From a virus: a stretch of 64,000 nucleotides of DNA. The number at the start of each line of letters is the position of its first letter. The stretch's first letter is position 1. This document shows positions 12,681 through 63,957 of this stretch, piece by piece. The notes beneath the pieces were generated by a model. It did no database searches, was not told where the DNA came from, and saw nothing but the letters and a program-made list of their open reading frames with translations. Where the stretch lies: positions 206,994-270,993 of IMG/VR virus record IMGVR_UViG_3300045988_139374; one strand, written 5' to 3'. The translations under genes and the position numbers were made by a program.

Positions 12681-12738
12681 TGTTTTATTACAATAAAAAC
12701 TGTACAATAACAAGTATAAAGAAAAGGAGTAGCAAAAT

Positions 12739-22066: not shown

Positions 22067-22069
22067 TAC

Positions 22070-22402: not shown

Positions 22403-22408
22403 GATTAG

Positions 22409-22955: not shown

Positions 22956-22956
22956 G

Positions 22957-23247: not shown

Positions 23248-23251
23248 TTAA

Positions 23252-23476: not shown

Positions 23477-23607
23477 TTTATTTACACATCTGGTGCATTA
23501 AAGCTAAAATAACATCTCAGTAAGGTATCCAATTTTGGTGCTGATTGGATATCTGTCCAATATCACTTAGGCGATGTTGGTAGGCATAATATTTTCTCCA
23601 AAAAGAT

Positions 23608-23643
23608 CGGTAGGAAGTTTAAACTTCCTACCGGTTTTTATTT
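23608..23643. terminator. bidirectional terminator hairpin
   Basis: CGGTAGGAAGT pairs with ACTTCCTACCG and is flanked by AAAA and TTTTT. It sits just downstream of the minus-strand gene ending at 23644. Confidence 0.85.
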
Positions 23644-24390: not shown

Positions 24391-24403
24391 AATTCATTAC
24401 TCC

Positions 24404-27520: not shown

Positions 27521-27618
27521 AACCTCCTATTTTGTTACTATAAATTACTATGAAGTTGAACTTTCGAGCTTTCGCACATTATATTAATATTAGTAAAGGA
27601 GAGGAGTTGGATCAATAT

Positions 27619-30600
27619 ATGGCTGATAAAGAAATGTATTTCGATACATCTAGTGCCAATAATCTTGGGACATTGGCACTAGAGCCTGACGAATCTATGG
27701 CTACTCCATCGTCAGTAAAAGATAAATATGCCTTTAAAGATGCAGTAACAAGAGATGTATTGATAGGTACAATGCCTCTTATTCCTGCTGCTAATACTAA
27801 GATTGACCCTAAATATGATGGCCATGTAAATAATACTTATAATATTCCAGAAGGCTATCATAATGGTAAAGGTACTGTTTATGTAGGAGATCTTAGCGAA
27901 TATACTCCTGGTACAGCTAAGCCAGAAGATGTTTCTGCATCTAAGACTTTCTGGGTAAATGGTAAAAAATATTCTGGTACCCTAGATGTAAAGCAAGCAA
28001 CCCAAGAAGCAGATGCTACACCTTGGGATATCGTTTCTCCTAAGACTGCTTGGGTAAATGGTAAGAAAGTTACTGGTTTGATTCCTTCTCTCCCTAGAAA
28101 AGATCAAAATTTACTTGCTGGAGAATCTTATACTTTTCCATATGGATTATCTGCTGGTACTACTGTAATTTCTGCTGCTGATCTAGCATCGCAAACTGTA
28201 GCTAATGCAAAGGCTAATCAGATTATAAAAGGACAAACAGCTTGGGTTAATGGTGTTAAAGTTACTGGTACATTTGATCTTGTAGAAAATACAAAAGAAT
28301 ATCTGAAAGAAACAAATGCTACTCAGAATCAAGTTCTGAGTAGTAAAAAATTCTATTCTTCTGTATATGGCCAAGTAATGTCTGGTACAATGCTTGACCA
28401 TAGCAATGATCCAGTTAGAACTCTTTTAAATGGAGTCACATTTACAATTCCTGAAGGATATTACTCTGGTAGAACATCTATCAAAGTTCAATCTCTTAGA
28501 GATGCTACTATATCTAATGCTACAGAAGATACAATTCTAGTTAATAGAACAGCTTGGGTTAATGGTGTTAAAGTCACCGGCACTATGCCTATGATAGATT
28601 CTAAGATTGTAGAACTTGGAGCTGGAGAATCTTTTGATATTAAGAAGGGTTTCCATACTGGTACTGGTAAAGTAAGAGCAAAAGATCTATCTGGAGAAAC
28701 TATAGGCACTGCTGAAGCTGGAGATCTACTAGTTGGAAAATCTATGTGGGTCAATGGTAAGAAGATAGTTGGTACAATGCCAGATATCGAAGCTTCTACT
28801 ACTAATCTTAAGCCTGGTGGAACATATCAAATTCCTGAAGGTCATCATAGTGGTAATGGATCTGTAACAGTAAAATCTCTTGCATATTATACTTCTGCAA
28901 ATGCTACTGCTAGTGATATTCTTACTACTAAGAATGCTTGGGTAAATGGAGTTAAAGTAGAAGGCACTATGGCAAATAATGGTGCTGTTTCTTCTATTCT
29001 TGCTGCTGGAGCATCTTATACAGTTCCTAAAGGATATCATAATGGATCTGGTGTTATTAAGGCACAAGATCTTGCATCTCAGACTTCTGCAAATGCTGCT
29101 GCAGATGATATTCTATCTCCCAAAACTGCATGGGTTAATGGTAAGAAAGTCACTGGCACACTAGCAATTGATGGATCTGCGTCTCAAGATGATGTAATTG
29201 CAGGTAAGACATTCTACAATAACGATCCTAAGGCTAAAAGAACTGGTACACTAACCCTTACTGGTAATGCTACTGAATCTGATGTAGTATCTGGAGTTAC
29301 TTATTATACTACAGATCCTAAGAGAAAGCATACTGGATCTTTAACTCTTAATGGCACTGCTAATACTGCACAAGTATTGTCTGGATATACTTTCTATAAG
29401 AATAATCCTAAAGCTAAAGTAACTGGCACCATGAAGAATAATGGTGGAATATCTGCCACTCTTAATGCAAATCAGTCCTTTACTATTCCTGAAGGATATC
29501 ATGATGGATCAGGTACAATTATTGCAAATGGTCTATCTGGACAAACTTCTGGTACTGCTACTGCTAGTGATATTGCAAAAGGAGCTACTGCTTGGATTAA
29601 TGGAGTCAAAGTAACTGGTACTTTGGAATTAACAGGCGATGCTACTCCTGAACAAGTTGTTGCTGGAGCCACTTTCTATAGTAATAATCTTAAGCAAAAA
29701 ATGATAGGCACTATGATTCAAGTGCCTACTAAAATCGTTTCCCTTCGTGCTGGTGAATCTTATACAATTCCTGCTGGCTATTATGATGGTACATCCAAAG
29801 TATTTGCTGTAGATCTTGCTTCTCAGACTCAAGCAACTGCTGATGTAAATAAAGTTCTAGAAGGATATACGGCATGGGTTAATGGTAAAAAGATTACTGG
29901 TAAGATGCTAAACCAAGGATCTAGATCTTTTAGAGATTTAGTAGCTGGTAGTAATATTAAGATTCCAGAAGGATATTATTCTGGATATGGATATATTACT
30001 ACTCTTGATCTTGCTACTCAAACCCAATCAGATGCTACGGCAAATGATATCCTGATAACTAAAACTGCATGGGTTAATGGAGTTAAGGTTACTGGATCTA
30101 TGCCAAATAATGGATCTTGGACTCAAGAAAATGTAAATGCTGGATCAAGTGTTACTATTCCTAAGGGATATCATAATGGTTCTGGTAAAATTACTATTAA
30201 AAGTCTAAGAGATCAAACTCAATCTAATGCTGTTCCTTATAATCTACTTATTGCTAAGACTGCATGGGTTAATGGATCTAAAATTACTGGTACTATGCCA
30301 GATAATACTGGATGGTCTTCTAAAGAAATGACCGCAGGATCTTCTGCTACCATTCCTGCTGGATTCCATGATGGTACAGGTGTTATAACTGCAAAGTCTC
30401 TTGCTTCTCAAACTCAAGCAACTGCAGGAGCTGCTGATATTCTATCTCCAAAGACTGCATGGGTTAATGGATCTAAAATTACTGGTACTATTCCTACTTA
30501 TACTACGTCTAAGTTGAGAATAGCTGCTGGCTACGATACTATTCTTCCTGCTGGATATTATGCAAATCCGATTCATATTTATAGCTTGTATGGAGATGAT

Positions 30601-30729
30601 GTTCTAGACCTAACAGGTACTAGTGCAGAATATGAGCAACCTACTGAATCTCTACTGCCTAATGATGATGGATATGTTGATACGGCAGAGACTAAGCTTG
30701 TTATCACTGCAGATCTAATAGGTGGATAA
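27619..30729 (+). CDS. large tail fibre protein, about 18 tandem units of a repeat of roughly 55-65 aa
   Basis: The likely start is ATG 27619, after GGAGAGGAG, although the track ORF starts at 27550. Repeat consensus: DIL..KTAWVNG.K(V/I)TGTMP..G......AG.SYTIP.GYH(N/D)GSG.V.AKDLASQT. Confidence 0.65.
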   Translation: MADKEMYFDTSSANNLGTLALEPDESMATPSSVKDKYAFKDAVTRDVLIGTMPLIPAANTKIDPKYDGHVNNTYNIPEGYHNGKGTVYVGDLSEYTPGTAKPEDVSASKTFWVNGKKYSGTLDVKQATQEADATPWDIVSPKTAWVNGKKVTGLIPSLPRKDQNLLAGESYTFPYGLSAGTTVISAADLASQTVANAKANQIIKGQTAWVNGVKVTGTFDLVENTKEYLKETNATQNQVLSSKKFYSSVYGQVMSGTMLDHSNDPVRTLLNGVTFTIPEGYYSGRTSIKVQSLRDATISNATEDTILVNRTAWVNGVKVTGTMPMIDSKIVELGAGESFDIKKGFHTGTGKVRAKDLSGETIGTAEAGDLLVGKSMWVNGKKIVGTMPDIEASTTNLKPGGTYQIPEGHHSGNGSVTVKSLAYYTSANATASDILTTKNAWVNGVKVEGTMANNGAVSSILAAGASYTVPKGYHNGSGVIKAQDLASQTSANAAADDILSPKTAWVNGKKVTGTLAIDGSASQDDVIAGKTFYNNDPKAKRTGTLTLTGNATESDVVSGVTYYTTDPKRKHTGSLTLNGTANTAQVLSGYTFYKNNPKAKVTGTMKNNGGISATLNANQSFTIPEGYHDGSGTIIANGLSGQTSGTATASDIAKGATAWINGVKVTGTLELTGDATPEQVVAGATFYSNNLKQKMIGTMIQVPTKIVSLRAGESYTIPAGYYDGTSKVFAVDLASQTQATADVNKVLEGYTAWVNGKKITGKMLNQGSRSFRDLVAGSNIKIPEGYYSGYGYITTLDLATQTQSDATANDILITKTAWVNGVKVTGSMPNNGSWTQENVNAGSSVTIPKGYHNGSGKITIKSLRDQTQSNAVPYNLLIAKTAWVNGSKITGTMPDNTGWSSKEMTAGSSATIPAGFHDGTGVITAKSLASQTQATAGAADILSPKTAWVNGSKITGTIPTYTTSKLRIAAGYDTILPAGYYANPIHIYSLYGDDVLDLTGTSAEYEQPTESLLPNDDGYVDTAETKLVITADLIGG

Positions 30730-51612: not shown

Positions 51613-52062
51613 TTAGCGATTGGGATCATCAGTAATGAAGCTGGTATTAGTCAGGTTAACACCACGCATATTCTTCATATACTGCTTCTGAGCAACCATA
51701 GCTGCACGAGCTGCTCTGTTGCCATACTTTTCCACAATCTTAGCACGAGTCTGCTTACGAAGCAGCTGATACTTAACCAGCTTATTATACAGAGGATCCT
51801 TCTTAGCACGTGCCATCATGATTGCCGCAATAGTCTTACGGCGATTCAGGTCAGTTGCCTTAGACAGACGAACCATAGTACGCTTATTAGACAGAACCTT
51901 TGCCTCAAGCAGAGACTCGCCAACACCATTAGGAGCGCAGAACTCACGAACAGTGTTCTCACTATAATGGTGAGTCAGATCATCGACCAGGAATGCTTCA
52001 ACAAGAGCATCCATATCAATGCCGAATTCTTCATTGTAATTATTTTCAGAATAAATGCCCAT
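51613..52062 (-). CDS. basic protein with G+C-rich codon usage (abundant-protein candidate)
   Basis: 149 codons with a GAAAGGA RBS. The C-terminal half is K/R/A-rich. Confidence 0.8.
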   Translation of the reverse strand: MGIYSENNYNEEFGIDMDALVEAFLVDDLTHHYSENTVREFCAPNGVGESLLEAKVLSNKRTMVRLSKATDLNRRKTIAAIMMARAKKDPLYNKLVKYQLLRKQTRAKIVEKYGNRAARAAMVAQKQYMKNMRGVNLTNTSFITDDPNR

Positions 52063-52110
52063 GATATTAAGTCCTTTCTACATGTAGAGTTTAAATTTCA
52101 TAATGGTTAT

Positions 52111-52157
52111 GTATTATAAAAGTGATGAAATGAAATCGAGCTCTCTATTTCATTCAT
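52111..52157 (+). promoter_or_regulatory. conserved promoter (-10 GTATTATAAAAGTGA) plus 5' hairpin
   Basis: Same architecture as the other copies. The stem is TGAAATGAAAT (52126-52136) / ATTTCATTCA (52147-52156), with one bulge. Confidence 0.5.
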
Positions 52158-52275
52158 TTCCCATTATGAGTTATTATAAAATAGTTCAATTGTAATTGAT
52201 AATTTTGCATACTTTATAATAATCAATGGGAGAATATTTATCTCTCAATATACATATCTAGAAAGGACTTTTATT

Positions 52276-52761
52276 ATGAACAATTACAACGGTAAGAACA
52301 AGAACTTCAGCAACAAGCCCCGTATGACTGATGAAGCGTATGCAGCTCGTAAGGCTCAGCTCATTGAGAAGCAGACTAAGAGTCTGGACGTTATCAATGA
52401 TGCTTGCACTTTCCTGGAGAAGGCAATTGCAGATACCAATGTCCATCGTGTTTCCATGAAGTATGTTCTTGCATATCTGAATGGTGAGAAGAATTATACT
52501 GTAGATGAAACCAAGGCTATTTCTAAGACCAACGATATTCTGATTGAGCTTGCAAATGCTCGTATGAATCGTTATATTACTGATGATCGCAACAATATTC
52601 GTGTTCTGTATGTTCATGAGCGCATGAAGACCTCTTTCAAGAAGGAGCTCCATGATCGTATTGACCAGCTTCTGAAGGATCATCCTGTTCTGCTGAAGTG
52701 GAGTGATACCACTGGCGAGAACTACAAGACTGTCATGGAAGAGAAGAAGGACAATGGCTAA
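52276..52761 (+). CDS. hypothetical protein (G+C-rich codon usage)
   Basis: 161 codons with a GAAAGGA RBS. Confidence 0.8.
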   Translation: MNNYNGKNKNFSNKPRMTDEAYAARKAQLIEKQTKSLDVINDACTFLEKAIADTNVHRVSMKYVLAYLNGEKNYTVDETKAISKTNDILIELANARMNRYITDDRNNIRVLYVHERMKTSFKKELHDRIDQLLKDHPVLLKWSDTTGENYKTVMEEKKDNG

Positions 52762-53257
52762 TTATATTGAACGAGAAGATGATAATCTATCTTCTACTAA
52801 CGATACCGTTGTAAATGATTCTACAAATACAGAAGAATCTGAGTTTCTTAATAGATGGGATTGGCTACTTAGTGGATGGGATATTATGACCATTGCTGAA
52901 AAGATGCAGATCTTTATGCCATATCTCCATTATATTAATCTCAGAGACTTTCCTAAAACTGAATTTGATGCGCAGCTTAATAAAGATATTGCAGAAAATT
53001 CTTTTAAGTTGTGCAGATCTTTCAGTGGAACTTTTAAGTTCGATCCTGACCAGCAAGGTATTCCGAATATGATCATTGTCTATAATCCCGTAGACGTTGA
53101 TGCTATTCCTTATCCTTCTCTAAAGGTAAAGGTTAAAGCTTGGGGTAGAAAGTATGGCTTTTACAAGGAAACTCCTGTAATTGATAATACTATTAACTCT
53201 GGCTGTAACTGCAATCCTAAGCATGATCATTATGGTTGCTGTAACTGTAATAATTAA
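52754..53257 (+). CDS. hypothetical protein with Cys/Asn-rich C-terminal tail
   Basis: The ATG at 52754 overlaps the end of the upstream gene. 167 codons ending SGCNCNPKHDHYGCCNCNN. Confidence 0.7.
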   Translation: MANYIEREDDNLSSTNDTVVNDSTNTEESEFLNRWDWLLSGWDIMTIAEKMQIFMPYLHYINLRDFPKTEFDAQLNKDIAENSFKLCRSFSGTFKFDPDQQGIPNMIIVYNPVDVDAIPYPSLKVKVKAWGRKYGFYKETPVIDNTINSGCNCNPKHDHYGCCNCNN

Positions 53258-53270
53258 CTTGATTTGAATA

Positions 53271-53312
53271 TTAGCCCAGAGGTATAAAGTTACCTCTGGG
53301 CTAATATTTTAG
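53271..53312 (+). terminator. rho-independent terminator
   Basis: TTAGCCCAGAGGTA pairs with TACCTCTGGGCTAA. Confidence 0.85.
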
Positions 53313-53343
53313 TAATAGAAACTGAAAGGAGATATTAAATGGA

Positions 53344-53781
53344 ATGGTAAAAATGAATCAAACTGTTAATCCAAAAGAGCATAAAATCTTGATGAAGTAT
53401 CGAGATACAATGTCCAGAATAATTAAATCAGCACATCCAGAAATGGATATACGAGACATTTATGCTGGAGTTGAATATTCGATATCTAAGAGGTTCAAGA
53501 ATTTCGATCTCGTAGTACAGAATAATTACACTGGTTCTAATCCTAAGATTAGTATGCTAGAACTGGTGGATTATATTGCAAAACGAGAACCAATTCTAAC
53601 AAGTTATGGAACTATGTTTAGAAGACATGATGTAGTTCCAAATCCTATGGCAAAGGTTATTCAAAACTTCCTAGACCTCAGAAAACTTCACAAGAAAGAA
53701 ATGTTTAAATATCCTAAAGGATCAGAACAATTTGAGAAATATAATCTACTCCAGGCACTTGATAAGATAGATGTAAATGGT
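53344..53781 (+). CDS. family B DNA polymerase fragment, exon 1 (fingers, ends inside motif B)
   Basis: The exon ends ...FEKYNLLQALDKIDVNG. A GAAAGGAG RBS is upstream, and the TAA at 53782 is read here as the first three intron nucleotides. Confidence 0.65.
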
Positions 53782-54159
53782 TAACTGTATAGCCCCATTA
53801 GGCTGGAAACGGTCAAATGGTAACACCAAGAAATTGCTGGAAAGTCTTAAAGCCTAATTGCTAATATGTGTAGATATTAGAGCGAAAGCAGAAATAATAA
53901 TTAGGATGATATATGGTGATAGTAAGCCTAAGTATCTTCAACTAAAATAGATAATCAGCATCCAGCTTAGAGAAGTAATTCTCTAATAGGTTCAACGACT
54001 AATTGTAGAGCTCAAGTGAGTCTCGAAATCTGGTGTACCTAAGTCATAGAAATATGATATGGTAGTGATATAGTCTAGTATCCTAGAGATAATCTAGGGA
54101 AGTTCATTAGAGAACTGTATAAGTGAGAGATAGTATCAACGACTTATATGAATATTACG
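53782..54159 (+). other. group-I-like self-splicing intron, no ORF (boundaries inferred)
   Basis: 378 nt that split motif B, with no ORF and no RBS before 54148. Exon 1 ends in T and the intron ends in G. ATTAGGCT (53797-53804) pairs with AGCCTAAT (53851-53858), and the region is less AT-rich than its flanks. Confidence 0.55.
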
Positions 54160-55995
54160 ATATATGGCCTTGTTGGTTTGTACGTGTCGATTCTGTTCGA
54201 CCTCAACATTGCACCGTCTGTAACATCTATCGGTAGATCTCTAATTAGTTCTGCAATCCTTTGTTTTGAAGGTTTCTTAGGGAACAATGTTAAGTTTGGA
54301 AGTCTTAATGATGTTCTCATTTTCATTGATAATGTAAGAATGGAGTATCATGATTGGAAATATAATGATTATGAAGTTCTTGGTTTCAATGGATTTATCT
54401 CTCCCGAAGAGTGTTTCAATAAAATCATGATGAATTGTGGTTTTAAATATATTCCTACAGATCAAGATATGGATACTGTATGGAGAATTATTCAAAACTG
54501 TAATCAGATTGAATTGAATAGACTCTTCTACAAGAATAATCTTTATTGTTTTATGGATCTTCCTATTGCCAGAGATCTAATGGTAAATATTATTACTGAA
54601 ATGAAAGTTCCTTATATTGAACCTGCAAATCCTCCAAAAGAAATTGTTAATGATCTTAATGCTCTTCGAGATTTACTGTTGGAATATGTCTTCTATCGCC
54701 ATCAGTATATGGATAGAATGATCAGAAATAAAGAGATGGTTAAGACTGTTTCTATTGTTTCCGATACGGATTCTTCGTTTATCTCTTTGGATGCTTGGTA
54801 CAATTATAATATACAGTATCTGAAGGATTATGATTGCCTTATTATGCATCAGCAAATCGATGTATATAAATTCCTCGAAGAAGAGAAAAAGAGAAAAGAT
54901 TATTTCTGGGCTGATACTGAAACTCCTGAGTGGTATAATGCAACAGATAATCGATTAGCCACTAAAACTTTGAAAGTAGATAGCTTTGGAGATATTGTAG
55001 ATCAATCGGAACTTGCTGCTATTGAATTCTTAGATGATAAAAAGGATTATGATTTCTTTAGCGAAGAGATCATTAATCAAAGAAGAGCTATTGATGCAAC
55101 TAAGATTATTCCTCAAGACAATGTAAAATTTGCTTTGATCAATATCATGTGCTATATTCTATCTTCTGTGATTAACAAGTATATGATTGATTTTACTAAG
55201 GAATCTGGATCTTATCGGGGCGATGCTAAGTGTAAGATTAACATGAAGAACGAGTTTTATATGTCTCGAATCATGTTGACTGATGCTAAGAAACATTATG
55301 CTAGTTTGCAGATTCTACAGGAAGGTAATTATCTAGGAAATGGTGTTTTGGACGTTAAGGGTATTGACTGTCTTACTAAGTCTTCTACTTCTAAGGACAC
55401 ACAGAAGGCATTGAAAAAGATTCTTCTTGAAGATATGCTAACTGGAAATTCTGTAGATCAATTGAAACTTATTAAAGATATTGCAATACTGGAGAAGACT
55501 ATTTATAATGATCTTCTTTCCGGATCTAAGAAATATTACAAGCCTGCAACTATTAAATCTATGGATAGTTATGAAAATCAAGGAGCTAGAATTCAGGGAG
55601 TTAAAGCAGCTATTGCATGGAATTATGTAAAATGCGATCTTCCTGGGTTTGATCTCGGAGATAGAAATGCTATCGATGTGATTAAGGTTAATGTAAATAA
55701 AGATACTCTAGAATCTATTAAGGATGAGTATCCTGAACAGTATCAAAAACTCTGTGAATTAACAGATCCTAAAAATCAGAATCTCGCTGATGGATTAAAA
55801 GTCTGTGATCTATTCAAGGGTAAACTTGATACTATTGCATTGCCTAAAGATCTTCCTGTTCCAGAATGGTTGAGAAAACTGATTGATTATCAAGAGATTA
55901 TTACTGATAACCTTGGTAATTTTCCTGTATCTTCTGCTGGAATCGGCCAATTTGGCGCAAAGAAAGCAAACTACTCTAATGTAGTAAGAATCTAA
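54160..55995 (+). CDS. family B DNA polymerase fragment, exon 2 (rest of motif B, palm motif C, thumb)
   Basis: The exon begins IYGLVGLYVSILFDLNIAPSVTSIGRSLI and carries motif C as IVSDTDSSFISLD. The splice product KIDVNG|IYG matches Kx3N(S/G)xYG. Confidence 0.7.
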   Translation: MYGLVGLYVSILFDLNIAPSVTSIGRSLISSAILCFEGFLGNNVKFGSLNDVLIFIDNVRMEYHDWKYNDYEVLGFNGFISPEECFNKIMMNCGFKYIPTDQDMDTVWRIIQNCNQIELNRLFYKNNLYCFMDLPIARDLMVNIITEMKVPYIEPANPPKEIVNDLNALRDLLLEYVFYRHQYMDRMIRNKEMVKTVSIVSDTDSSFISLDAWYNYNIQYLKDYDCLIMHQQIDVYKFLEEEKKRKDYFWADTETPEWYNATDNRLATKTLKVDSFGDIVDQSELAAIEFLDDKKDYDFFSEEIINQRRAIDATKIIPQDNVKFALINIMCYILSSVINKYMIDFTKESGSYRGDAKCKINMKNEFYMSRIMLTDAKKHYASLQILQEGNYLGNGVLDVKGIDCLTKSSTSKDTQKALKKILLEDMLTGNSVDQLKLIKDIAILEKTIYNDLLSGSKKYYKPATIKSMDSYENQGARIQGVKAAIAWNYVKCDLPGFDLGDRNAIDVIKVNVNKDTLESIKDEYPEQYQKLCELTDPKNQNLADGLKVCDLFKGKLDTIALPKDLPVPEWLRKLIDYQEIITDNLGNFPVSSAGIGQFGAKKANYSNVVRI

Positions 55996-56005
55996 AAGCA
56001 AATAA

Positions 56006-56042
56006 TAGGATAGGTATAAAGCCTATCCTATTATTTTTTTTT
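56006..56042 (+). terminator. rho-independent terminator
   Basis: TAGGATAGG pairs with CCTATCCTA, followed by a long T-run. Confidence 0.8.
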
Positions 56043-56066
56043 ATTTATTGTTATTTATTTCAAATA

Positions 56067-56104
56067 GATATTATAACAGTGATAGAGACATGTACGTTCT
56101 CTAC
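56067..56104 (+). promoter_or_regulatory. conserved promoter (-10 GATATTATAACAGTGA) plus 5' hairpin
   Basis: The stem is TAGAGA (56083-56088) / TCTCTA (56098-56103). Architecture matches the other copies. Confidence 0.5.
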
Positions 56105-56139
56105 CAAGTCAAAAATATTTTATAGGAGGTCCAAAGATT

Positions 56140-56745
56140 ATGGATCACAAAGGTTTTATCGTAAGAGAAGATGCAGCAGCTGAATTTAAGAAGGATATCT
56201 CTGAAAAGAGAAAATCTCTTCCTAAACCAAAGAGAAACAGCAATCGTGGATTTGTTGTTCGCAATGACAGCAATCCCAGAAGCTTTCAGCTTGGAAAGAA
56301 AGTTGCTTACAAAACCTTCAGACTCTGGCCTGATGATGTTCAGGCTATGTATCTGAAAGACATCTTGAGCAAATATCCTGGGTTAACTTCTAGGAATATT
56401 GCCATCATGATGGGATGCTCTCCCATCACGATCAGAGAAATTAATCAGAAGCTTGGAAATATCATTCCTACTTTTGATAGGAAAAGTCCTCAGAAAGAGC
56501 ACGATGACATCGTGAATCGGTTTTACACTGATTACGATTGTCTGAAAGCTGCTGCAGAATATGCAGCTACCAAGCAAAGTATCAGGAAAAAATGGAGTAA
56601 GAAATCCAAATCCACAATCAGTATTCAGAATATGAGCATGACTGTCAGCTTCAATATTGATACTGACAATATTGCTCAATTTCTGAAAGAGCATGGGTTC
56701 AATGGTCAGGTAACTCTGACCATTAGTAAGAACATCAGCGAATAA
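56140..56745 (+). CDS. putative DNA-binding protein (HTH in central region)
   Basis: 201 codons with a TAGGAGGT RBS. LTSRNIAIMMGCSPITIREINQKLG looks like a helix-turn-helix, and codon usage is G+C-rich. Confidence 0.4.
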   Translation: MDHKGFIVREDAAAEFKKDISEKRKSLPKPKRNSNRGFVVRNDSNPRSFQLGKKVAYKTFRLWPDDVQAMYLKDILSKYPGLTSRNIAIMMGCSPITIREINQKLGNIIPTFDRKSPQKEHDDIVNRFYTDYDCLKAAAEYAATKQSIRKKWSKKSKSTISIQNMSMTVSFNIDTDNIAQFLKEHGFNGQVTLTISKNISE

Positions 56746-56774
56746 GAATAAAAAGAAAAAGGAGATAAAAAAAT

Positions 56775-57728
56775 ATGTTTAGCCTTAATAATGGTTCTAC
56801 CACTTCTACTCTTCGTGACAAGCTCATGAAGTATAAAAAGATTATCTTTCACTCCGGCGTATTTCACGCCGATGAGGTATATGCTACGGCATACCTCATG
56901 ATTTTGTATGACGTATTCGGCCTTCCGTTTCCTAAGTGGGAACGTAAGAATGTTATCTCTCCTGAGATGACCGAGGAGAACGGTTATCTCGTGTATGACG
57001 TTGGTGGTGGTCGTTTTGACCACCATTTTCCAGAAGAACAGAAGCAGCGTAGAGAAGATGGAACTCCTTATGCTGCATTTGGGTTGATTGTAAGAGAGTT
57101 CCATGAAGGATTCTTGACCCAGGAGGAATATGAAGCTTTCGACTCCTCTTGGGTCAAAGGTATCGATCTCAATGATAATACCGGATGTGGAAACCCGGCT
57201 GCATTTGAGATCAAATGCATGAATCCCACTTGGGATTCACCAAATAATAACACCGACATCAGAGTGTTTACTGCAATCAGCAAAGCAAGAGATACGCTCG
57301 AATATATCATTGAGCATATCTATGCTGATTGTCATGCACGTGAGTGTGCAGAGACTGCAGTAGACATTGCTGATGGGTGCGTGTACTTGGAGCATTATGC
57401 ACCTATCGGTAAATATATTGCGCCGAAAGATGGAATCGCATTTTTTGGTTTTCCGAGTAATCGGGAAATCGGAAAGTATTCCATTACTTCCGTTAAATGG
57501 AAGGGAGTTAATAAAGCTCTGTTCCCTCAGCAGTTTAGAGGACTGAGTGCAAAAACTCCTAATTTTGCTCAGATCAATTTCAACACTGGTCTGAGTTTCG
57601 TACACCCGAGTGGATTTATGGCCACTTTTGATAGTAAGGAATTGGCCAAGAAATTCATGCGGGATTATAAGAATCAGTTTGAGATTCCTGTACCTGTAGA
57701 AGATGATAAAGAGGAGGCGCAGGAATAA
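56775..57728 (+). CDS. MYG1/UPF0160-family metal-dependent hydrolase
   Basis: FHSGVFHADEVYA and YDVGGGRFDHHFPE match the MYG1 family signatures (HxGxFHxDE and DVGG..yDHH), recalled from memory. Confidence 0.65.
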   Translation: MFSLNNGSTTSTLRDKLMKYKKIIFHSGVFHADEVYATAYLMILYDVFGLPFPKWERKNVISPEMTEENGYLVYDVGGGRFDHHFPEEQKQRREDGTPYAAFGLIVREFHEGFLTQEEYEAFDSSWVKGIDLNDNTGCGNPAAFEIKCMNPTWDSPNNNTDIRVFTAISKARDTLEYIIEHIYADCHARECAETAVDIADGCVYLEHYAPIGKYIAPKDGIAFFGFPSNREIGKYSITSVKWKGVNKALFPQQFRGLSAKTPNFAQINFNTGLSFVHPSGFMATFDSKELAKKFMRDYKNQFEIPVPVEDDKEEAQE

Positions 57729-58147
57729 TGAACATGCTTATTGTGAATAATCTCAATAGAAGTGGAGATCTCCCAGAAATTGAGGTTAATATTTACAATG
57801 AGAAGAAAAGGGAAATTGTATACAGTTCTACTATGCAATTTTCTGGAACATGTTTTTTATGCTTCCGTAAATATAACGGAACCGTAACGTGTTCCGCTAT
57901 TGGCAAGTCTCCTAATATTGATTATATGGATCTTGTCAATAAAGGAGTAGATAAAGCAACCATAATCGGAATCATGAAAGGAGCGATTACTTATTCAATT
58001 TGTAATATGATTATCACAGCAAAGGTGTTTGATAAAGATATTCATGGAGAACCTATCCATGTAGAAGATGTGAATATCTTTCCAAATACTGAAAAAGAAA
58101 GGGAGATTGATAAGTTTATTGAGGATTGTTATTTCATGATCTCTTAA
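57728..58147 (+). CDS. hypothetical protein
   Basis: 139 codons. The ATG overlaps the upstream stop (TAATG). Confidence 0.7.
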   Translation: MNMLIVNNLNRSGDLPEIEVNIYNEKKREIVYSSTMQFSGTCFLCFRKYNGTVTCSAIGKSPNIDYMDLVNKGVDKATIIGIMKGAITYSICNMIITAKVFDKDIHGEPIHVEDVNIFPNTEKEREIDKFIEDCYFMIS

Positions 58148-58161
58148 TCATTAATATAAAA

Positions 58162-58198
58162 GGAGTGGGTTTCATTCGCCCACTCCTTTTATTTTTTA
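58162..58198 (+). terminator. rho-independent terminator
   Basis: GGAGTGGG pairs with CCCACTCC, followed by a T-run. It is a near-duplicate of 1764-1803. Confidence 0.85.
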
Positions 58199-58255
58199 TT
58201 ATATTATCGACTTTTATATAATTTAGCCCCATTATATATTAGGAGGATTTATATT

Positions 58256-59188
58256 ATGTCTCAGGCAGATATCATCTTTAAAAACACTTGCCTTGATATT
58301 ATCAATAATGGTATTGATACTACTGGTGAAAGTGTAAGAGCAACTTGGGCAGATACCAATGAGCCTGCTTATACTATTAAGAAATTTGGAGTTGTAAATC
58401 GTTATAATCTTCAAAAGGAATTTCCTGCTATTACTATGCGTCCTACTAGTATTAAAGCAGCTGCCGATGAACTTCTTTGGATTTGGCAAAAGAAGAGTAA
58501 TAATGTAAATGATTTGAATTCTCATATTTGGGATTCTTGGGCAGATGCTGAAGGGTCTATTGGTAAAGCATATGGATATCAAATCGGTAAAACTTATGCT
58601 CATCATCATTTGAATGATTATCCTACTGCTGAAGTATTTGCAGAGCTGAAGGAATATCCTTCTTCTAGGGTAGTATTTAAAGACGATAATTATTGGGTAT
58701 TGCTTGACCAAATTGATGGAGTAATTTGGGATCTTAAGCATAATCCTTTTTCTAGAAGAATCATGACTAATATTTATAACTTTGAAGATCTTCATGATAT
58801 GAATCTTTATCCTTGCGCATATTCCATGACCTTCAATGTTACTAGAGATAAAGAAGATGGTAGACTCACTCTAAATGGTATTCTTAATCAACGTTCTCAA
58901 GACATGCTTACCGCAGGCAATTGGAATGTTGTACAATATGCAATTCTTATTATGATGCTTGCTAAAGTTTGTGACATGTATCCTGGAGAATTGGTACATG
59001 TGATCGCTGATTGCCATATTTATGATCGTCATATTCCTATTGTAAAAGAACTTATTGAACGTCCTACTTTTGATGCTCCTAATGTATGGCTTGATAAAGT
59101 AGATAATTTCTATGACTTTAAAATCGATAATATTCATATCGATAATTATCAGCATAATTCTCAGATTAAATTCCCTGTTGCAATTTAA
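58256..59188 (+). CDS. thyA: thymidylate synthase (ThyA-type; a dUMP hydroxymethylase-type variant cannot be excluded)
   Basis: RRIMTNIYN..LYPCAYSMTFNV contains the active-site Cys, and LNQRSQDMLTAGNWNVVQYAIL matches the QRSxD..LG.PFNIASYALL signature. Confidence 0.75.
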   Translation: MSQADIIFKNTCLDIINNGIDTTGESVRATWADTNEPAYTIKKFGVVNRYNLQKEFPAITMRPTSIKAAADELLWIWQKKSNNVNDLNSHIWDSWADAEGSIGKAYGYQIGKTYAHHHLNDYPTAEVFAELKEYPSSRVVFKDDNYWVLLDQIDGVIWDLKHNPFSRRIMTNIYNFEDLHDMNLYPCAYSMTFNVTRDKEDGRLTLNGILNQRSQDMLTAGNWNVVQYAILIMMLAKVCDMYPGELVHVIADCHIYDRHIPIVKELIERPTFDAPNVWLDKVDNFYDFKIDNIHIDNYQHNSQIKFPVAI

Positions 59189-59214
59189 TATAATTAAAAG
59201 GAGAATAAATTAAA

Positions 59215-59493
59215 ATGGAAGAAAAGCTGGTTATTCGTGGAGCAAAGATTGGTTCTACTTATAGAGTAGATATTAGAAATTTAGAGCCTATAAATCCTTT
59301 TAACGTGATCACTGAGAGGATTATGCGAGTATTGTATATTGCTAGGCATAATACTACTGATGAATACCTTGTTGCTTGCTGTCCTTTTAATTATATAGAA
59401 GATGAATGTAAATCTAGTGATGTGACTGATAATGTAAAAATGATTCCTATTTCTGTATGGAGAAAAATTGCAACTAGAATCGATAGAGGATAA
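59215..59493 (+). CDS. hypothetical protein
   Basis: 92 codons with an AAAGGAGAA RBS. Confidence 0.7.
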   Translation: MEEKLVIRGAKIGSTYRVDIRNLEPINPFNVITERIMRVLYIARHNTTDEYLVACCPFNYIEDECKSSDVTDNVKMIPISVWRKIATRIDRG

Positions 59494-59497
59494 AATA

Positions 59498-59761
59498 ATG
59501 AAAGTTAAAGTTGGAGAAATTTATAAGCATCATAAAGGATCTTTTGTAAAAGTAGTTGCTCTATGTAAGCATACTGAAACGCTAGAAGATATGATTGCAT
59601 ATATTCATGTAAATAATACTTCTGCGAATAATACAGATCCTAATCTGTTCTTTGCCACAGATCATACTGTGTGGGTACGCCCTGCAAGTATGTGGTTTGA
59701 TAAAGTTAAAGATGGAACTACTACTAGATTTACTCTTGTTGAATTTAAGGAGAAAAAATGA
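59498..59761 (+). CDS. DUF1653-like protein
   Basis: The ATG at 59498 is internal Met 11 of the track ORF. IYKHHKGSFVKVVALCKHTETLEDMIAYIHV...WVRPASMWFDKV fits the DUF1653 pattern YxHYKG..Y.V...A.HTET.E..VVY...WVRP..MF. Confidence 0.55.
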   Translation: MKVKVGEIYKHHKGSFVKVVALCKHTETLEDMIAYIHVNNTSANNTDPNLFFATDHTVWVRPASMWFDKVKDGTTTRFTLVEFKEKK

Positions 59762-59762
59762 A

Positions 59763-60419
59763 ATGATGAAAGCAATTGTATGCGTAGACAACAATTGGGC
59801 TATCGGAAATCAGAATAATCTTCTTTTTAATATTAAAGAAGATATGGCTCGATTTAAAGATATTACAATGGGTAAAACTATTGTATACGGTCGTAAGACA
59901 CTAGAATCATTTCCTGGAATGAAACCTCTTCCTGGACGTAAGAATATTGTTATGACCAGAGATTTTAATCATCTTGAATCTAAATCTTTGTTTGCTGCTA
60001 AGTATGCAGGATTTTTCTTAGCTCCTCCTGAATCTGAAGGTAGAGGTAGAATTCGTAATCCTGATATAGATGAAGCAGAGTATAGATCTTCTTTTGCTGT
60101 TAGACGTAATCCTGAAGTTAAGACTCCTAATAATAGAACTATGATTTTCTGGGTAGAAAATCTTCGTGGCTTACTCGACGCAGTAGAAATTATTGGAGAC
60201 AGTGAAAATACTATAGTCTGTGGTGGAGAGCAGATTTATAGACTTCTACTTCCTTATTATGATACAGTATATGTAACTAAAGTAAATGCTGAAGCTCCTG
60301 CACATGATGCAACATTTCCTAATCTAGATCAAATGGATGATTGGAAAGTTGTTGAAGATGAAGATTGGAGATCTAATGGATCTTATAATTTTAAATTTAT
60401 GACTTATAAAAGGAAATAA
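59763..60419 (+). CDS. folA: dihydrofolate reductase with an internal insertion of about 55 aa
   Basis: The ATG at 59763 is internal Met 38 of the track ORF. VDNNWAIGNQNNLLFNIKEDMARFK..TIVYGRKTLESFP..PLPGRKNIVMTR...VCGGEQIY is colinear with bacterial DHFR. Confidence 0.7.
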   Translation: MMKAIVCVDNNWAIGNQNNLLFNIKEDMARFKDITMGKTIVYGRKTLESFPGMKPLPGRKNIVMTRDFNHLESKSLFAAKYAGFFLAPPESEGRGRIRNPDIDEAEYRSSFAVRRNPEVKTPNNRTMIFWVENLRGLLDAVEIIGDSENTIVCGGEQIYRLLLPYYDTVYVTKVNAEAPAHDATFPNLDQMDDWKVVEDEDWRSNGSYNFKFMTYKRK

Positions 60420-60424
60420 ATCTT

Positions 60425-61306
60425 ATGGATATGGTGAATGTGAATTTTGGATATCTTGTAAAGAATTTTACCGATAGAAATAGTGAAGGCGAACGCTACA
60501 CTATGTTTGAAAATCCTAATAAGATTTATGACAGATTTTCTGAAGTTAAAGGTAGAATTGTTTATGATGGATATAATAAGATGATAGAATATGTACAGCA
60601 GAATATTCTTACTTTATTATCATCCGCTGTGGATAAAAAACCTAAGGCTTTAAGAACTATTACAGATAAAGATTTTCTTGTAGCTTTGGATATGTCTGGT
60701 ATAGCTCTTGATAGAGAATATACTAATAGATTCAATAGAGTATATCGAGCTTATGTAATTAATCCTGCAAACAATGTTCTTTATAATGAAGAAAATGCTT
60801 GTTTGCTTGGAAAAATTGCTATAAGAATGAATCGAGAAATGATCAATAATCTTATGAGTCTTGGTCTTTCTGAGAGTTATGCTTTATGGATTGCAGTAAA
60901 TAGAAATTCTAGTACAGATGAACGTCGTAATATTAGAAGAATGGTTCGTGCTATGCAACACATGGATCCTGATATTATGACTGAGCAGATGGTAGTAAAT
61001 GTATTTTCTAAGACTTTTAGTGATCAGCTTACGAATCTTTTTATTTCTATCATGACAGATAGATTTGATGCCTTTGATGACGACAATGAAAAATATGTCT
61101 ACTCTGCTGTATCTAATGCTATCTTGGATATTCTAAATACTATGGATATTGATGAGATCAAAGATATTGTATTTGAGTATGAGAATGAATTAAAAAGATC
61201 TGGAGTTAAAGGAAGATTTTCCATGATGGCTATTAGTCCTGGGGAATATCCTGCAATTTGTAGAGCAATGGATGAAATTGAAGCTATGGGAATAAAGATT
61301 GAATAA
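60425..61306 (+). CDS. hypothetical protein
   Basis: 293 codons, followed by a terminator. Confidence 0.8.
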   Translation: MDMVNVNFGYLVKNFTDRNSEGERYTMFENPNKIYDRFSEVKGRIVYDGYNKMIEYVQQNILTLLSSAVDKKPKALRTITDKDFLVALDMSGIALDREYTNRFNRVYRAYVINPANNVLYNEENACLLGKIAIRMNREMINNLMSLGLSESYALWIAVNRNSSTDERRNIRRMVRAMQHMDPDIMTEQMVVNVFSKTFSDQLTNLFISIMTDRFDAFDDDNEKYVYSAVSNAILDILNTMDIDEIKDIVFEYENELKRSGVKGRFSMMAISPGEYPAICRAMDEIEAMGIKIE

Positions 61307-61314
61307 CTAATATT

Positions 61315-61353
61315 AGAGGAATGGAGTAAAATCCATTCCTCTATTTTATTTTA
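61315..61353 (+). terminator. rho-independent terminator
   Basis: AGAGGAATGGA pairs with TCCATTCCTCT, followed by a T-rich run. Confidence 0.85.
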
Positions 61354-61356
61354 TAA

Positions 61357-61566
61357 TCTGACGCTTCTAATAAGATTAAGAGTACAGATTTTACATCAGG
61401 GTATCAATTCACATTAGGTATTCCAATATCTGTTGCATGTAAAAGTGACCATAATTGTATTGCATATATAACTAAATCATATTGGATATATTGTATGTAT
61501 TTTAGTACGACTGGTAGTGCTGATTATAAAATATATAATAGGCCTTGTATAGTATATTATATTTAA
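61357..61566 (+). other. start-less DAS cassette C1 (family C, 69 codons)
   Basis: Motif core at 61359-61369 with in-frame TAA at 61354-61356. The ORF reads SDASNKIKSTDFTSGYQFTLGIPISVAC...NRPCIVYYI-stop. Confidence 0.65.
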
Positions 61567-61571
61567 TTATA

Positions 61572-61612
61572 AACCAATAGAGAGAAATCTCTATTGGTTT
61601 TATTTTTTTTTT
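61572..61612 (+). terminator. terminator hairpin inside the cassette array
   Basis: AACCAATAGAGA pairs with TCTCTATTGGTT, followed by a T-rich tract (TTTATTTTTTTTTT). Confidence 0.8.
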
Positions 61613-61636
61613 GAAAATATATTAAAATTATAATAA

Positions 61637-61849
61637 TTTGACGCTTCTACTAAAATTAGGCATCAAGATATAAATATTACAGATAGTAGTGGATATACTT
61701 TTAGAACTGGAACACCTATATCTGCAGTATATATAGGAGATACAAGTAGTAATTATGCTATTATAACTTTTTCAAATGTAATTATGATAAAAGGTTTCGG
61801 ATCATTAGGTTCTAGTACTACAGGTACTGCTAGAGTATATTATATCTAA
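61637..61849 (+). other. start-less DAS cassette C2 (family C, 70 codons)
   Basis: Motif core at 61639-61649 with in-frame TAA at 61634-61636. FDASTKIRHQDINITDSSGYTFRTGTPISAVY...GTARVYYI-stop is followed by the degenerate motif ATCTAATGAtatTTC. Confidence 0.65.
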
Positions 61850-61904
61850 TGATATTTCACATCATAATAATTCTCGAAAACTTTTCATAAAGGAGATAAT
61901 TATT

Positions 61905-62408
61905 ATGAATTTTAATATGAAGCAAATCCATACTATCTATGAATCTGGCGTCAATGATCAGACTGGAGCAAATCTAGATAATACTCTAAGATCTGCAGAC
62001 CTTATGGAAATTTTTGATAATATCTGCCCTATTACTGGTGGCGTATATAAGGCAATGAAGAATGCTGCTGCTGATCCGCAGAATCTTAAAGTTACAGTCT
62101 CTAAGAATGGTGAAGGTGAAAAGGCAAGTCTTTTCATTGAAGCTGTAGAATTTATGACTTATGTAGAAGCTTGCGGTAAGACTATCGGTGAAGCAGCAGA
62201 TGATATTGTAGATGCATATCAAACTGATATTCCTGGCATGGCAAGCGATGATATTCATATTGTATTTCCTAGTGATGCTCTTAATAAGAATGATCTTGGA
62301 AGTCAGAATTATGGCAGAGATGTTAAGAATGACTGGGCAATGCAATTGATGACTGGAATTCGCAGATATGGTCTAAAGGCTAATATTGGTGTAGAAGAAA
62401 GTAAGTAA
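61905..62408 (+). CDS. hypothetical protein
   Basis: 167 codons with an AAAGGAGA RBS. The gene lies between two convergent cassette arrays. Confidence 0.8.
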   Translation: MNFNMKQIHTIYESGVNDQTGANLDNTLRSADLMEIFDNICPITGGVYKAMKNAAADPQNLKVTVSKNGEGEKASLFIEAVEFMTYVEACGKTIGEAADDIVDAYQTDIPGMASDDIHIVFPSDALNKNDLGSQNYGRDVKNDWAMQLMTGIRRYGLKANIGVEESK

Positions 62409-62454
62409 GTATTTATTTCCAGGTATAATAGATAGTAAAACATATTTGAATTAA

Positions 62455-62497
62455 AATAATTCACTAGAGATCCTTCTCTAGTGAATTATTATTTGCT
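62455..62497. terminator. bidirectional terminator hairpin
   Basis: TTCACTAGAGA (62460-62470) pairs with TCTCTAGTGAA (62475-62485). Confidence 0.85.
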
Positions 62498-63409
62498 TTA
62501 TCTTATCATTATAAGTGGAAATATGCCAGGATTTTTATCTCCATTACCATAATTGTAAACATCTTTGTCTATTACAGATCCATTAGATACACACCATGGC
62601 ATATCATAATAAGAAGAATGAGCATTACCATACGAAGTTCCTCTTAATCCTCTTAGAAGCGAGTAATCTCCAAATTGCCAAGTATTAAAATTAAAATATG
62701 GTAGTTTATAATTAGCTTCACCATCATCATAAACTGTATTATTTACACCAAAAGTACCAGTAATTTGACCAGCACTCATAAGAGCACCATAACATACAGT
62801 CCATTCATATCCAGTGGTATTACTACCAACATTAGCGCTATTAGACAGTAGCATTCTTCTTTTTATTAAATGATCTTTTAATATAGAATCATTATTTACA
62901 AATGAAGATTGTAAATAATTGTTAATTTTTTTATGAACACCAGTATTCATATAACCATTGCTTAATGACATATTTCCATTATCATATGTAAAAAACGATG
63001 TTGTAGGAATCATAAATATACCATATCCATTATCATAAGTAGTTCCATCTGAAGCAGTTTTATTATGCTCACAATCAAATCCAACTATTACCCATGTCTT
63101 ATTATATGTACCATCTTTAATAGTTATTGTAGAACCAATAGAAGCGTCATAATAGCCAGTAGCATGATTACATGTACTAAGAAAATTATCTACATCGCTA
63201 ATACTAGACCAAGTACCAAGATTCTTAACTTCATATCTAGTATTAGGAGGAGTAGTATCATGATCCAAATTACTGCTATCACCTAGAATTTTGATAATAA
63301 TAGATTGTATAGATGTATCAGCACTAAAGGATGAACAATCAGGCAATCCTCCAACTTCATAAATTGTAACTATATCTTTACCTAAAGATACTTTATTAGA
63401 AGCGTCAGA
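62498..63409 (-). other. start-less DAS cassette D (303 codons, composite D1 plus D2; tail-fibre-tip-like)
   Basis: Reverse motif core at 63397-63407 with an in-frame TAA just upstream on the minus strand. The ORF reads SDASNKVSLGKDIVTIYEVGGLPDC...HATGYY|DASIGSTITIKDG... and has a second in-frame motif copy at 63139-63149. The sequence is G/N/Y/T-rich. Confidence 0.65.
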
Positions 63410-63428
63410 TTATTTAAAATAAATATAA

Positions 63429-63656
63429 TTAAATATAATATACTATACAAGAACAGGTACCAGTAGTATAAGTTGCATAGCTACCCAGAAAAAATCTAAT
63501 ACATCGTATATAATATGATTTATTGATATAAGTAATATATGGAATCGGAACACCATTATTACTACTTACATTACGTGTAACAGATATTGGTATACCTAAT
63601 GTAAATTGATCTTCTGATGCAAAATCTACACTCTTAATTTTAGTAGAAGCGTCAGA
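63429..63656 (-). other. start-less DAS cassette C3 (family C, 75 codons)
   Basis: Reverse motif core at 63644-63654. The ORF reads SDASTKIKSVDFASEDQFTLGIPISVTRN...CSCIVYYI-stop. Confidence 0.65.
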
Positions 63657-63957
63657 TTGGTAGAATATAATAAACAATTGTATGAAGTTCTTGAAATGAA
63701 TACCTTGCAGATGTATCTTTTGCAGCATATAAAACATATATGCTTGTTCCATTTTCTATATGATACCAAGAATACCAAAAAATTGCATCACTATTATTTG
63801 TATTGCTTCTAGGATACATATCTGCAGATTTTTTATATATAGATATTGGAATAATAAAATCGCTTATATCTTTTATCTTTATATAATCTATTCCAGCACT
63901 AAATGCTTTATATGCATAATTAATTTCCATCTTATAAATTTTAGTAGAAGCGTCATT
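63652..63957 (-). other. start-less DAS cassette B4 (family B, 101 codons)
   Basis: Reverse motif core at 63945-63955. NDASTKIYKMEINYA...ISDFIIPISIYKKSADM...IFWYSWYH...HTIVYYILPI ends on the TGA inside the next motif copy (63652-63654). Confidence 0.65.

Follow-up and report, generated by a model that had tools for sequence, protein, structure and literature searches.

Putative silent tail-fibre tip cassettes in the genome of an uncultivated gut jumbo phage, probably switched by site-specific recombination at an 11-bp core

Introduction

Exchange of the C-terminal part of an adhesin or tail fibre by DNA rearrangement is known from the R64/IncI shufflon (Rci, sfx, PilV) and from the G and C segments of phages Mu and P1 (Gin, Cin), and related arrangements are found in the vsa locus of Mycoplasma pulmonis (HvsR, vrs) and in integrons. 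In phages, the known cases of receptor-binding tips switched by recombination are mainly two-state systems (Mu, P1) and shufflons that are small and local. The Rin shufflon of Bifidobacterium prophages is reportedly phage-encoded and diversifies a receptor-binding protein, and is said to be small, local and a property of temperate phages. Here, a 64,000-nucleotide stretch of viral DNA (positions 206,994 to 270,993 of IMG/VR virus record IMGVR_UViG_3300045988_139374; this whole stretch is called the window) was analysed, and in particular three consecutive units on its minus strand, B4, C3 and D (62498-63957), each headed by the same 11-bp sequence, the core. With a probability of about 0.8, these units are silent tail-fibre tip cassettes belonging to a genome-wide bank and switched by conservative site-specific recombination. 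No published description of such a system was found in full-text searches of the literature, the motif itself having been included as a query.

In the proposed mechanism, each of the 16 window cassettes, which lie in five clusters, would be an alternative C-terminal tip of one tail-fibre-like protein, and the core would encode Asp-Ala-Ser, placed just ahead of the tip domain where a predicted helical neck ends. One expression unit, outside the window, would supply the promoter and a constant N-terminal domain (N-domain). Recombination within TGACGCT would bring a new cassette, and all the DNA that follows it, into frame after the N-domain, and the displaced cassette would go back to the bank. 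Oppositely oriented sites would give inversions of ~2 kb to tens of kb, and between sites of like orientation excision followed by re-integration may occur. Within one phage population, genomes would then show different receptor-binding tips, and their adsorption specificity would be expected to vary.

With the R64 shufflon the system shares an adhesin gene whose constant N-terminal part takes one of several C-terminal segments in frame, recombination at short repeats with asymmetric sites (a conserved core plus one arm, no dyad), and a tyrosine recombinase, here a candidate one. As in the shufflon, the repeats occur in both orientations and the breakpoints lie exactly at the repeat. Whereas the shufflon is one compact 2-kb block, dozens of cassettes are present here, mostly head-to-tail and in clusters tens of kb apart in a ~260-kb genome, and in place of a contiguous block beside a recombinase gene there are five clusters over 64 kb and no recombinase in the window. 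Rearrangements here carry essential phage genes along, unlike those of the shufflon, and direct-repeat recombination may occur, as hinted by contig L175 (see below), whereas the shufflon uses inversion only. In place of Rci, the candidate recombinase here is XerA/C/D-like by its matches, which are below the cut-offs. From the Rin shufflon the system differs in being genome-wide and in belonging to a jumbo phage distantly related to AR9/PBS1.

The vsa locus has a single expression site with promoter and 5' coding region, silent genes that have neither 5' end nor promoter, a recombination site inside the coding sequence at the fusion point, and inversions that carry a silent gene to the expression site, all of which have counterparts here. 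It serves a bacterial surface lipoprotein, however, with 34-bp sites at one locus, whereas the sites described here are distributed over a viral genome and the product is a putative virion fibre; the likeness is one of logic, and no homology is expected. In Mu and P1, as is proposed here, tail-fibre C-termini are switched by site-specific rearrangement behind a constant N-terminal part, with an effect on host range, but the tools are a serine invertase, 26-bp dyad sites, an enhancer and one segment with two states, whereas here there are many states and no dyad. No serine resolvase/invertase domain was found in the open reading frames (ORFs) of the window or in the precomputed Pfam list of the related contig L122. 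Integrons likewise have direct-orientation arrays of promoterless cassettes, a tyrosine recombinase and an expression point, and direct-repeat recombination may occur here too. Their cassettes, however, are complete genes with a structured attC at the 3' end, whereas those described here are start-less fragments that carry their 11-bp core 5', within the frame, and the expression unit, rather than the cassette, may be what moves. Against integron-integrase models, the recombinase scored far below the cut-offs. A diversity-generating retroelement is not the explanation of the cassettes, none being found in the window.

Results

The core and the frames that it opens

Exact copies of the 11-mer TGACGCTTCTA were found 16 times in the window, on both strands and in five clusters, and the base before each copy of GACGCTTCTA is always T. 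Four minus-strand copies lie at 63945-63955, 63644-63654, 63397-63407 and 63139-63149, in the positions and frames in which the earlier note on this DNA had described them; the others lie at 114-124 on the minus strand and, on the plus strand, at 1831, 2129 and 2637, at six places within 21825-23267, and at 61359 and 61639. When one mismatch was allowed, there were 20 matches against 2.4 expected, a number that none of 100 shuffles reached, and TGACGCTTCTA is the most over-represented of the non-trivial 11-mers of the window.

Read as GAC-GCT-TCT (Asp-Ala-Ser), each copy begins a stop-free frame DAS-x-K.... The frames measured from the core are 60-302 codons in size, with at least 60 codons in 14 of 16, while the chance of a 60-codon open frame at 33% GC is ~0.01. 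Upstream of the core, an in-frame stop is one or two codons away in 10 of the 16 copies and no more than a few tens of codons away in the remainder, except for a copy inside D and a spurious frame at 123. A functional start codon was found in no cassette, and sigma-70-like matches are at chance level. The cassettes have no promoter of their own, in line with the earlier note, which saw no minus-strand promoter for the array. Intrinsic terminators stand ahead of several cassettes (for example 61314-61343 and 61571-61600), as expected of silent, insulated units.

Across 59 distinct sites from the window and its relatives, T-GACGCTTCT is invariant, synonymous positions included, with the exception of two GCTACT variants. 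The core is followed by A(78%)-n-T(80%)-A(98%)-A(95%) and preceded by a weak aaTcT, upstream conservation extending ~5 nt only, and no dyad symmetry was found in the logo of these sites. In the window the three codons have usages of 0.10 (GAC), 0.52 (GCT) and 0.59 (TCT), and protein-level selection alone is therefore insufficient to explain the uniform codon choice at the core. A 14-mer scan of IMG/VR gave mostly chance matches.

Several other functions of the motif were considered and rejected. As a promoter or transcription start it fails because the upstream sequence is unconserved past ~5 nt, sigma-70-like matches do not exceed the level of shuffled sequence, and the motif lies inside the coding frame of fusions. 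A preceding A, C or T does give an NTG codon at the core, but the frame of that codon closes after 6-22 codons. Frameshifting at the core lacks a slippery sequence, and an RF2-like +1 shift at ATC-TGA-C is blocked by upstream stops. Read-through or an alternative genetic code was set aside since most cassettes are separated by stops in all frames.

More generally, the joining might take place at the level of RNA or translation on static DNA, by trans-splicing, discontinuous transcription, ribosome hopping, frameshifting or read-through. A short motif before each body superficially recalls the transcription-regulating sequences of nidoviruses, and at several sites the TGA within the core falls in the reading frame of the cassette before it. 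Most cassettes are nevertheless separated by stops in each of the three frames, consecutive cassettes are mutually in frame at only two of the five array-2 junctions, and the fusions are present in DNA contigs, which refutes this explanation and makes it scarcely credible.

Array 4 (B4-C3-D) and its surroundings

The first unit of the array, B4, is a silent cassette of 100 codons (63655-63954, minus strand) headed by an exact core (63945-63955); its frame is open from the motif, and its TGA stop (63652-63654) overlaps the core of C3. A fortuitous ATG is present two codons upstream of the frame. B4 is 68% identical to the array-2 cassette at 22412 and has five database homologues (92-109 aa). 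C3, also headed by an exact core (63644-63654), is a silent cassette with an open frame of 74 codons (63432-63653, minus strand), an in-frame stop one codon upstream and no ATG. It appears to be a small beta-sandwich tip, and is 73% identical to the C-terminal part of protein P0123, where that part is fused to the constant N-domain. The third core (63397-63407, minus strand), an observed breakpoint in the comparison with contig L126 below, heads the silent cassette D of 302 codons (303 with the preceding Ser codon; 62501-63406, minus strand, stop 62498-62500), which has an in-frame stop 34 codons upstream and no ATG.

Between D and the plus-strand gene at 61905-62408, a bidirectional terminator hairpin (62455-62490) was computed and is visible in the sequence, and array 4 is convergent with that gene across it. 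The gene encodes a 167-aa protein without a Pfam match, found in identical form on 9 contigs, and is a fixed landmark beside the cassette locus in all related genomes. At the other end, the extension contig L125 shows a block of divergent plus-strand genes adjoining the head of B4, in agreement with the plus-strand block that had been proposed there. The order B4-C3-D is reproduced in three other assemblies (L125/L131, L132 and L127).

Proteins in which a constant N-domain precedes a cassette

Longer homologues of D (423-442 aa) were found to carry a 138-residue N-terminal domain (M-A/P-N/I-V/I-D...MNQTLTSLN) directly before DASNK.... A search with this N-domain gave 80 proteins, mostly of 205-244 aa, in which the N-domain is 78-96% identical to the query and the tips after DAS are 66-108 residues long, highly varied, and end in ...YYI. 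In 85 fetched proteins consisting of N-domain, DAS and tip, the tips belong to at least 21 families unrelated to one another, with 21 clusters at 30% identity and 31 at 50%, and include homologues of C3, D and the cassettes at 61640, 23258, 22713, 61360 and 123. D itself is 72% identical to its N-fused counterpart P0010, and four different tips were observed on N alleles that are at least 98.6% identical.

The real fused state is thus the constant N-domain plus one cassette, joined in frame at the motif. The N-domain fusions bear out the earlier claims that the 11-mer is the joining point of protein modules and that a junction running into DAS is a real one. The natural junction is, however, not ...YY+DAS... 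as had been supposed: the expressed junctions all read ...QTLTSLN/DAS... (the slash marks the join), constant N-domain to cassette, and the (V/I)YYI tails of the cassettes are simply the C-termini of finished proteins.

In a structural model of P0123, the N-domain fused to a C3-like tip, DAS lies at the end of a long helix (residues 121-139) and is followed directly by an all-beta beta-sandwich tip with a predicted local distance difference test score (pLDDT) of 84-91. The N-domain is probably the virion anchor, because its first ~100 residues are shared with other fibre-like genes of these phages. Its residues 11-79 are 45% identical to a Roseburia phage protein, and no relative was found in reference bacterial genomes, hence no clue to the host. 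In L122 the gene preceding the expression unit has Phage_fiber_rpt and tail-fibre PHROG matches.

A different fusion was observed in L177 (10409-10940; IMG/VR contig 125976), where a decayed core, GACGCTTATCT, links the N-domain to a fibre C-terminus, LPIAGGTMTG.... L177 ends 635 nt after the start of this conventional C-terminal part, and the fusion may represent a locked or ancestral state.

DNA breakpoints at the core

The contig L126 (ENA ERZ1304729 NODE_684) is 100.000% identical to window positions 51905-63407 (11.5 kb), through the last base of the D core. Past that base, N-domain, Shine-Dalgarno site and promoter region replace C3-B4, and the resulting N+D gene encodes 438 residues (439 codons including the stop). 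L133, a short contig of the same assembly, contains B4-C3-core. L124 agrees with the window at ~99% identity, but has two other cassettes in place of the first one of array 3, the breaks falling at the cores; at 11476-11560 of this contig, B4, C3 and the first nine codons of D, head core included, have been deleted, and its copy of D is no longer recruitable except through the internal 11-mer. In L122 and L134 the change from N-domain to silent flank lies exactly at the core. Breakpoints at the core were observed in L126, L124, L134, L172 and L173, and recombination at these points is documented by comparison of the DNA itself.

The six expression junctions always read ...GCTAAAT-GACGCT, followed by TCTA, TCTC, TCTG or ACTA depending on the tip, and the same four variants also head the matching silent cassettes behind other upstream flanks. 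Since the variable bases +6 and +9 travel with the cassette, and the bases at -2 and further upstream with the upstream flank, the crossover is placed within T-GACGCT, a segment whose size would match the overlap region of a tyrosine recombinase.

These junctions might also have arisen without any programme, by homologous or microhomology recombination between co-infecting relatives over evolutionary time, like the His-box exchanges in the tail-fibre genes of T-even phages. Phages do swap fibre modules at conserved motifs, and the comparisons span metagenome assemblies rather than one clonal stock. Eleven bp is, however, too short for efficient homologous recombination, the synonymous positions are invariant against the codon bias, and the breakpoint falls within an otherwise 100.000% identical 11.5-kb stretch. 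Moreover, dozens of start-less, promoterless, terminator-insulated frames stay open, which requires that they be regularly expressed, and hence regularly transferred to the expression unit. Unprogrammed exchange is consequently judged quite improbable.

Contexts of the expression unit

In the relatives, the expression unit is ~0.95 kb long and bounded by two direct cores, m' (TGACGCTATTACGAAGTAG, which reads DAITK-stop) and m. It consists of promoter, Shine-Dalgarno site and the 138-codon N-domain ending ...QTLTSLN, followed by the core, and is 95-97% identical across genomes, while its contexts vary and both orientations occur. In L172 (a 268-kb contig) the unit stands in plus orientation between the 167-aa gene and the next gene block and is followed by five cassettes. 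At the same place, the cassette locus, it is inverted in L126 and fused to D. It is fused to array-2-type cassettes in L173, followed by the window's 248-aa gene (23511-24410), and to array-3-type cassettes in L174; in L122 it lies ~4 kb downstream of the tyrosine recombinase gene. The difference between L172 and L126 is that which a ~2-kb inversion between the core of the unit and an inverted cassette core would predict.

The same contexts admit a second account, in which the ~0.95-kb unit of promoter and N-domain excises as a circle between m' and m and integrates before any cassette, with no large inversions. In L126, L172, L173 and L174 the homology begins exactly at m' and ends at m while both flanks vary, and proteins composed of N-domain plus DAITK-stop recur in several data sets. 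The MEGAHIT contig L175 measures 1085 nt, of which 141 nt are repeated directly at its two ends. Read as a 944-bp circle or as a collapsed tandem, it joins N to m', a junction that requires direct-repeat recombination. As a collapsed tandem duplication yields the same contig, L175 is not proof of an excised circle. In L176 the N-m' junction is part of a linear sequence. Between L172 and L126 the unit is flipped at a single locus, as local inversion predicts, and L126 differs from the window by more than a simple insertion of the unit. A mobile unit of this kind is considered possible but unlikely, and switching of the cassettes in the bank by inversion, with direct-repeat recombination as a possible addition, is retained as the preferred account.

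Further sequence elements were observed in the expression unit (L172 9468-10000; also L126 and L173-L175). Five direct TGTGAAG(N)... copies lie upstream of the promoter. The unit further contains a leader-like element in duplicate, CC-AAAATGGG-A-TTTTAAGA, and a diverged copy of the core that is partly decayed, GACGCTACTA. These elements may serve for regulation or as sites for accessory proteins.

Cassette D as a single unit

An in-frame copy of the 11-mer (TGACGCTTCTATTGG, 63139-63149, minus strand) is present 87 codons into D (...HATGYY/DASIGS...), with no stop between it and the head core, as had been reported. From this the earlier note had concluded that D is two cassettes, D1 and D2, caught fused at the motif, with cassettes chained by ...YY+DAS.... 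A perfect 11-mer, in frame and after a GYY that resembles the YYI tails, does suggest such a junction, and Asp is encoded at the internal site by GAC, a rare codon (10% of Asp codons), which speaks mildly for a cause other than random drift.

The homologues of D, 467 in the database, do not agree with it. In an alignment of 55 of them (47-91% identity), Y85, Y86, A88, I90, G91 and S92 are invariant, and position 87, Asp in the window, is Gly in at least 90%. The internal site is YY-G-A-S/T (GGTGCTTCTA) in more than 50 homologues, followed by IGS, and Gly is encoded by GGT. Three IMG/VR relatives (58-75% protein identity over all 302 residues) have the head core of D, whereas their internal site reads TATGGTGCTTCTATT, that is, Gly-Ala-Ser. 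D1 or D2 alone, or with other partners, was never seen among the D homologues: the shorter database entries all begin at an internal Met of D1 and hold ...GYYGA(S/T)IGS... and then D2, and are a gene-calling artefact of a start-less cassette. As far as could be checked, D1-D2 is thus an indivisible unit, the outcome that the earlier note itself had named as refuting its reading. Of genuine sites, 95-98% have A-A at +12/+13, which the internal copy does not, and all observed expressed junctions read TSLN/DAS.

An AlphaFold model of D (pLDDT 73, predicted template modelling score 0.74; D1 residues 61-80 at pLDDT 82-90) aligns over nearly its whole length with unrelated predicted phage proteins, namely receptor-binding, DUF6273 and tail-collar fibre proteins (E 1e-10 to 6e-4). 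For D there was no match to a PDB fold or sequence, to Pfam or to PHROG, and Pfam and PHROG scans of B4, C3 and N+D were also empty. By its model, D looks like a large receptor-binding-type tip, and the fibre-tip or adhesin character suspected for its second part is in this sense supported.

D is one cassette, and D1-D2 a single conserved unit; its derivation from two cassettes is highly improbable. The internal copy is not a cassette boundary or junction, and represents a strain-cluster-specific two-base change, GGT to GAC (Gly87 to Asp), in the conserved structural motif YYGAS. The rare GAC at this site is mildly odd, and one might speculate about conversion by an abortive exchange.

Candidate recombinase

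The relatives encode a 329-aa tyrosine recombinase, at 5018-6007 in L122, for which Phage_integrase with SAM-like N-terminal domains is on record in Pfam. Against NCBIfam it matches XerA, XerC and XerD best, in each case below the cut-off, and models of tyrosine-type invertases match weakly. The protein shows 91-99% conservation across all four IMG/VR relatives, and a more distant phage of 288 kb has a homologue at 62% identity; no recombinase gene was found in the window. In contig 125976 the expression unit lies ~105 kb from the recombinase gene. This conserved XerC/D-like tyrosine recombinase is the likely enzyme of switching.

Beside the 62%-identical recombinase gene, L138 (9226-12000) contains a 924-aa ORF with eight ~190-bp tandem repeats. 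The opposite strand of these repeats reads ATAATCTGATGCTTTACC, which resembles the context of the core; the resemblance was judged coincidental, and the repeat was rejected as a cassette site because it is a ~190-bp tandem repeat inside the ORF.

Other cassette clusters of the window

Array 3 (61359-61849, plus strand) consists of two silent cassettes of 68 and 69 codons with cores at 61359-61369 and 61639-61649, preceded by the two terminators at 61314-61343 and 61571-61600. Its cassette at 61640 is 78% identical to the tip of the N-fusion P0124, and that at 61360 is 45% identical to P0123. Array 2 (21825-23476, plus strand) was recognised by motif and open frames and contains six core-headed cassettes. 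The first (21826-22066) is frameshifted: the DAS frame ends after 20 codons, and homology resumes in another frame, with 86% nucleotide identity to an intact cassette of L173. The cassettes at 23258 and 22713 are 63% and 58% identical, respectively, to the N-fusion P0170. By the same features, array 1 (1831-2820, plus strand) has three core-headed cassettes, and a core at 114-124 with the start of a cassette running off the window was recognised on the minus strand (1-124). The latter cassette, at 123, has 86 codons in L128 and is 57% identical to the tip of the N-fusion P0128.

Phage context, a retroelement in a relative, and other features

The phage has not been cultivated and derives from human gut metagenomes; the related contigs measure 160-288 kb, and the genome is roughly 260 kb. 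Samples containing it are ERR414328, ERR414329 and those from which ERZ1304311, ERZ1304729, SRR8316601 and SRR25448233 derive. The window has 33% GC, and Shine-Dalgarno sites of the AGGAGG type serve its genes. A beta'-like subunit of RNA polymerase shares 28% identity with subunits of AR9/PBS1-type jumbo phages, and a megablast search of 10 kb of the window against GenBank phages gave no match.

A genuine diversity-generating retroelement was found in L122, with a variable repeat (11170-11258), a template repeat (12250-12338) and a reverse transcriptase (12388-13779). Of the 22 mismatches between the repeats, 17 are at template adenines. The only target of the element is the D-type tip in the expression site, at its 3' end, which is thereby marked as a ligand-binding surface. 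L134, otherwise collinear, lacks the reverse-transcriptase block. One fibre gene of L122 thus combines cassette switching with mutagenic retrohoming.

Other features of the window were recorded apart from the cassettes. The sequence TGGGTTAATGG (Trp-Val-Asn-Gly) occurs nine times at 26820-30470, always in the coding sense and with four copies at 195-nt spacing. The copies lie in two divergent genes (26210-27520, minus strand, and 27550-30729, plus strand), the products of which are repeat-domain proteins matching phrog_13589 with 10 matched stretches. In L124, 661-1861 is a segment of ~1.2 kb with a 274-aa ORF in place of 390 nt in the window (53781-54172), with flanks that are ~97-99% identical. 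The difference is located just upstream of a divergent ORF for a family-B DNA polymerase that matches profile positions 422-681 only, and may reflect a mobile insertion or a split polymerase gene. The minus-strand gene at 5958-9617 encodes a 1219-aa protein with a weak match to GNAT acetyltransferase at residues 312-412, just below the Pfam cut-off.

Discussion

Several observations weigh against the reading of B4, C3 and D as members of a switched bank. The expression unit and the recombinase both lie outside the window, and that this very genome has them is deduced from near-identical contigs; likewise, switching within a population is deduced from contigs of the same or related assemblies. 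A B4-type tip joined to the N-domain was not found among its five database clusters. That the recombinase gene is close to a cassette locus carries no statistical weight, since cassette loci are frequent. The site has no dyad and, with ~11-15 bp conserved, is short for a tyrosine recombinase, although the sfx sites of the shufflon are similarly one-armed. Finally, the N-domain of L177 is followed, after a decayed core, by a fibre C-terminus of the conventional kind.

If the cassettes are switched as proposed, the system would have dozens of alternative tips, and its rearrangements would reorder large parts of a jumbo-phage genome, which would explain assembly breaks in such genomes. Gene callers misannotate every silent cassette by picking internal or fortuitous starts. 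For engineering, the natural plug-in junction ...TSLN/DAS... with its ~11-bp core would be of use for fibre libraries.

A doubtful but distinct extension is an inverse integron, in which the circular ~0.95-kb unit inserts before any of dozens of cassettes in a 260-kb lytic jumbo phage and some tips are also diversified by a retroelement. If this were true, two layers of host-range diversification would be stacked in one fibre gene. For the cassette bank itself, the meaning would be that one phage lineage could sample many receptors without mutation.

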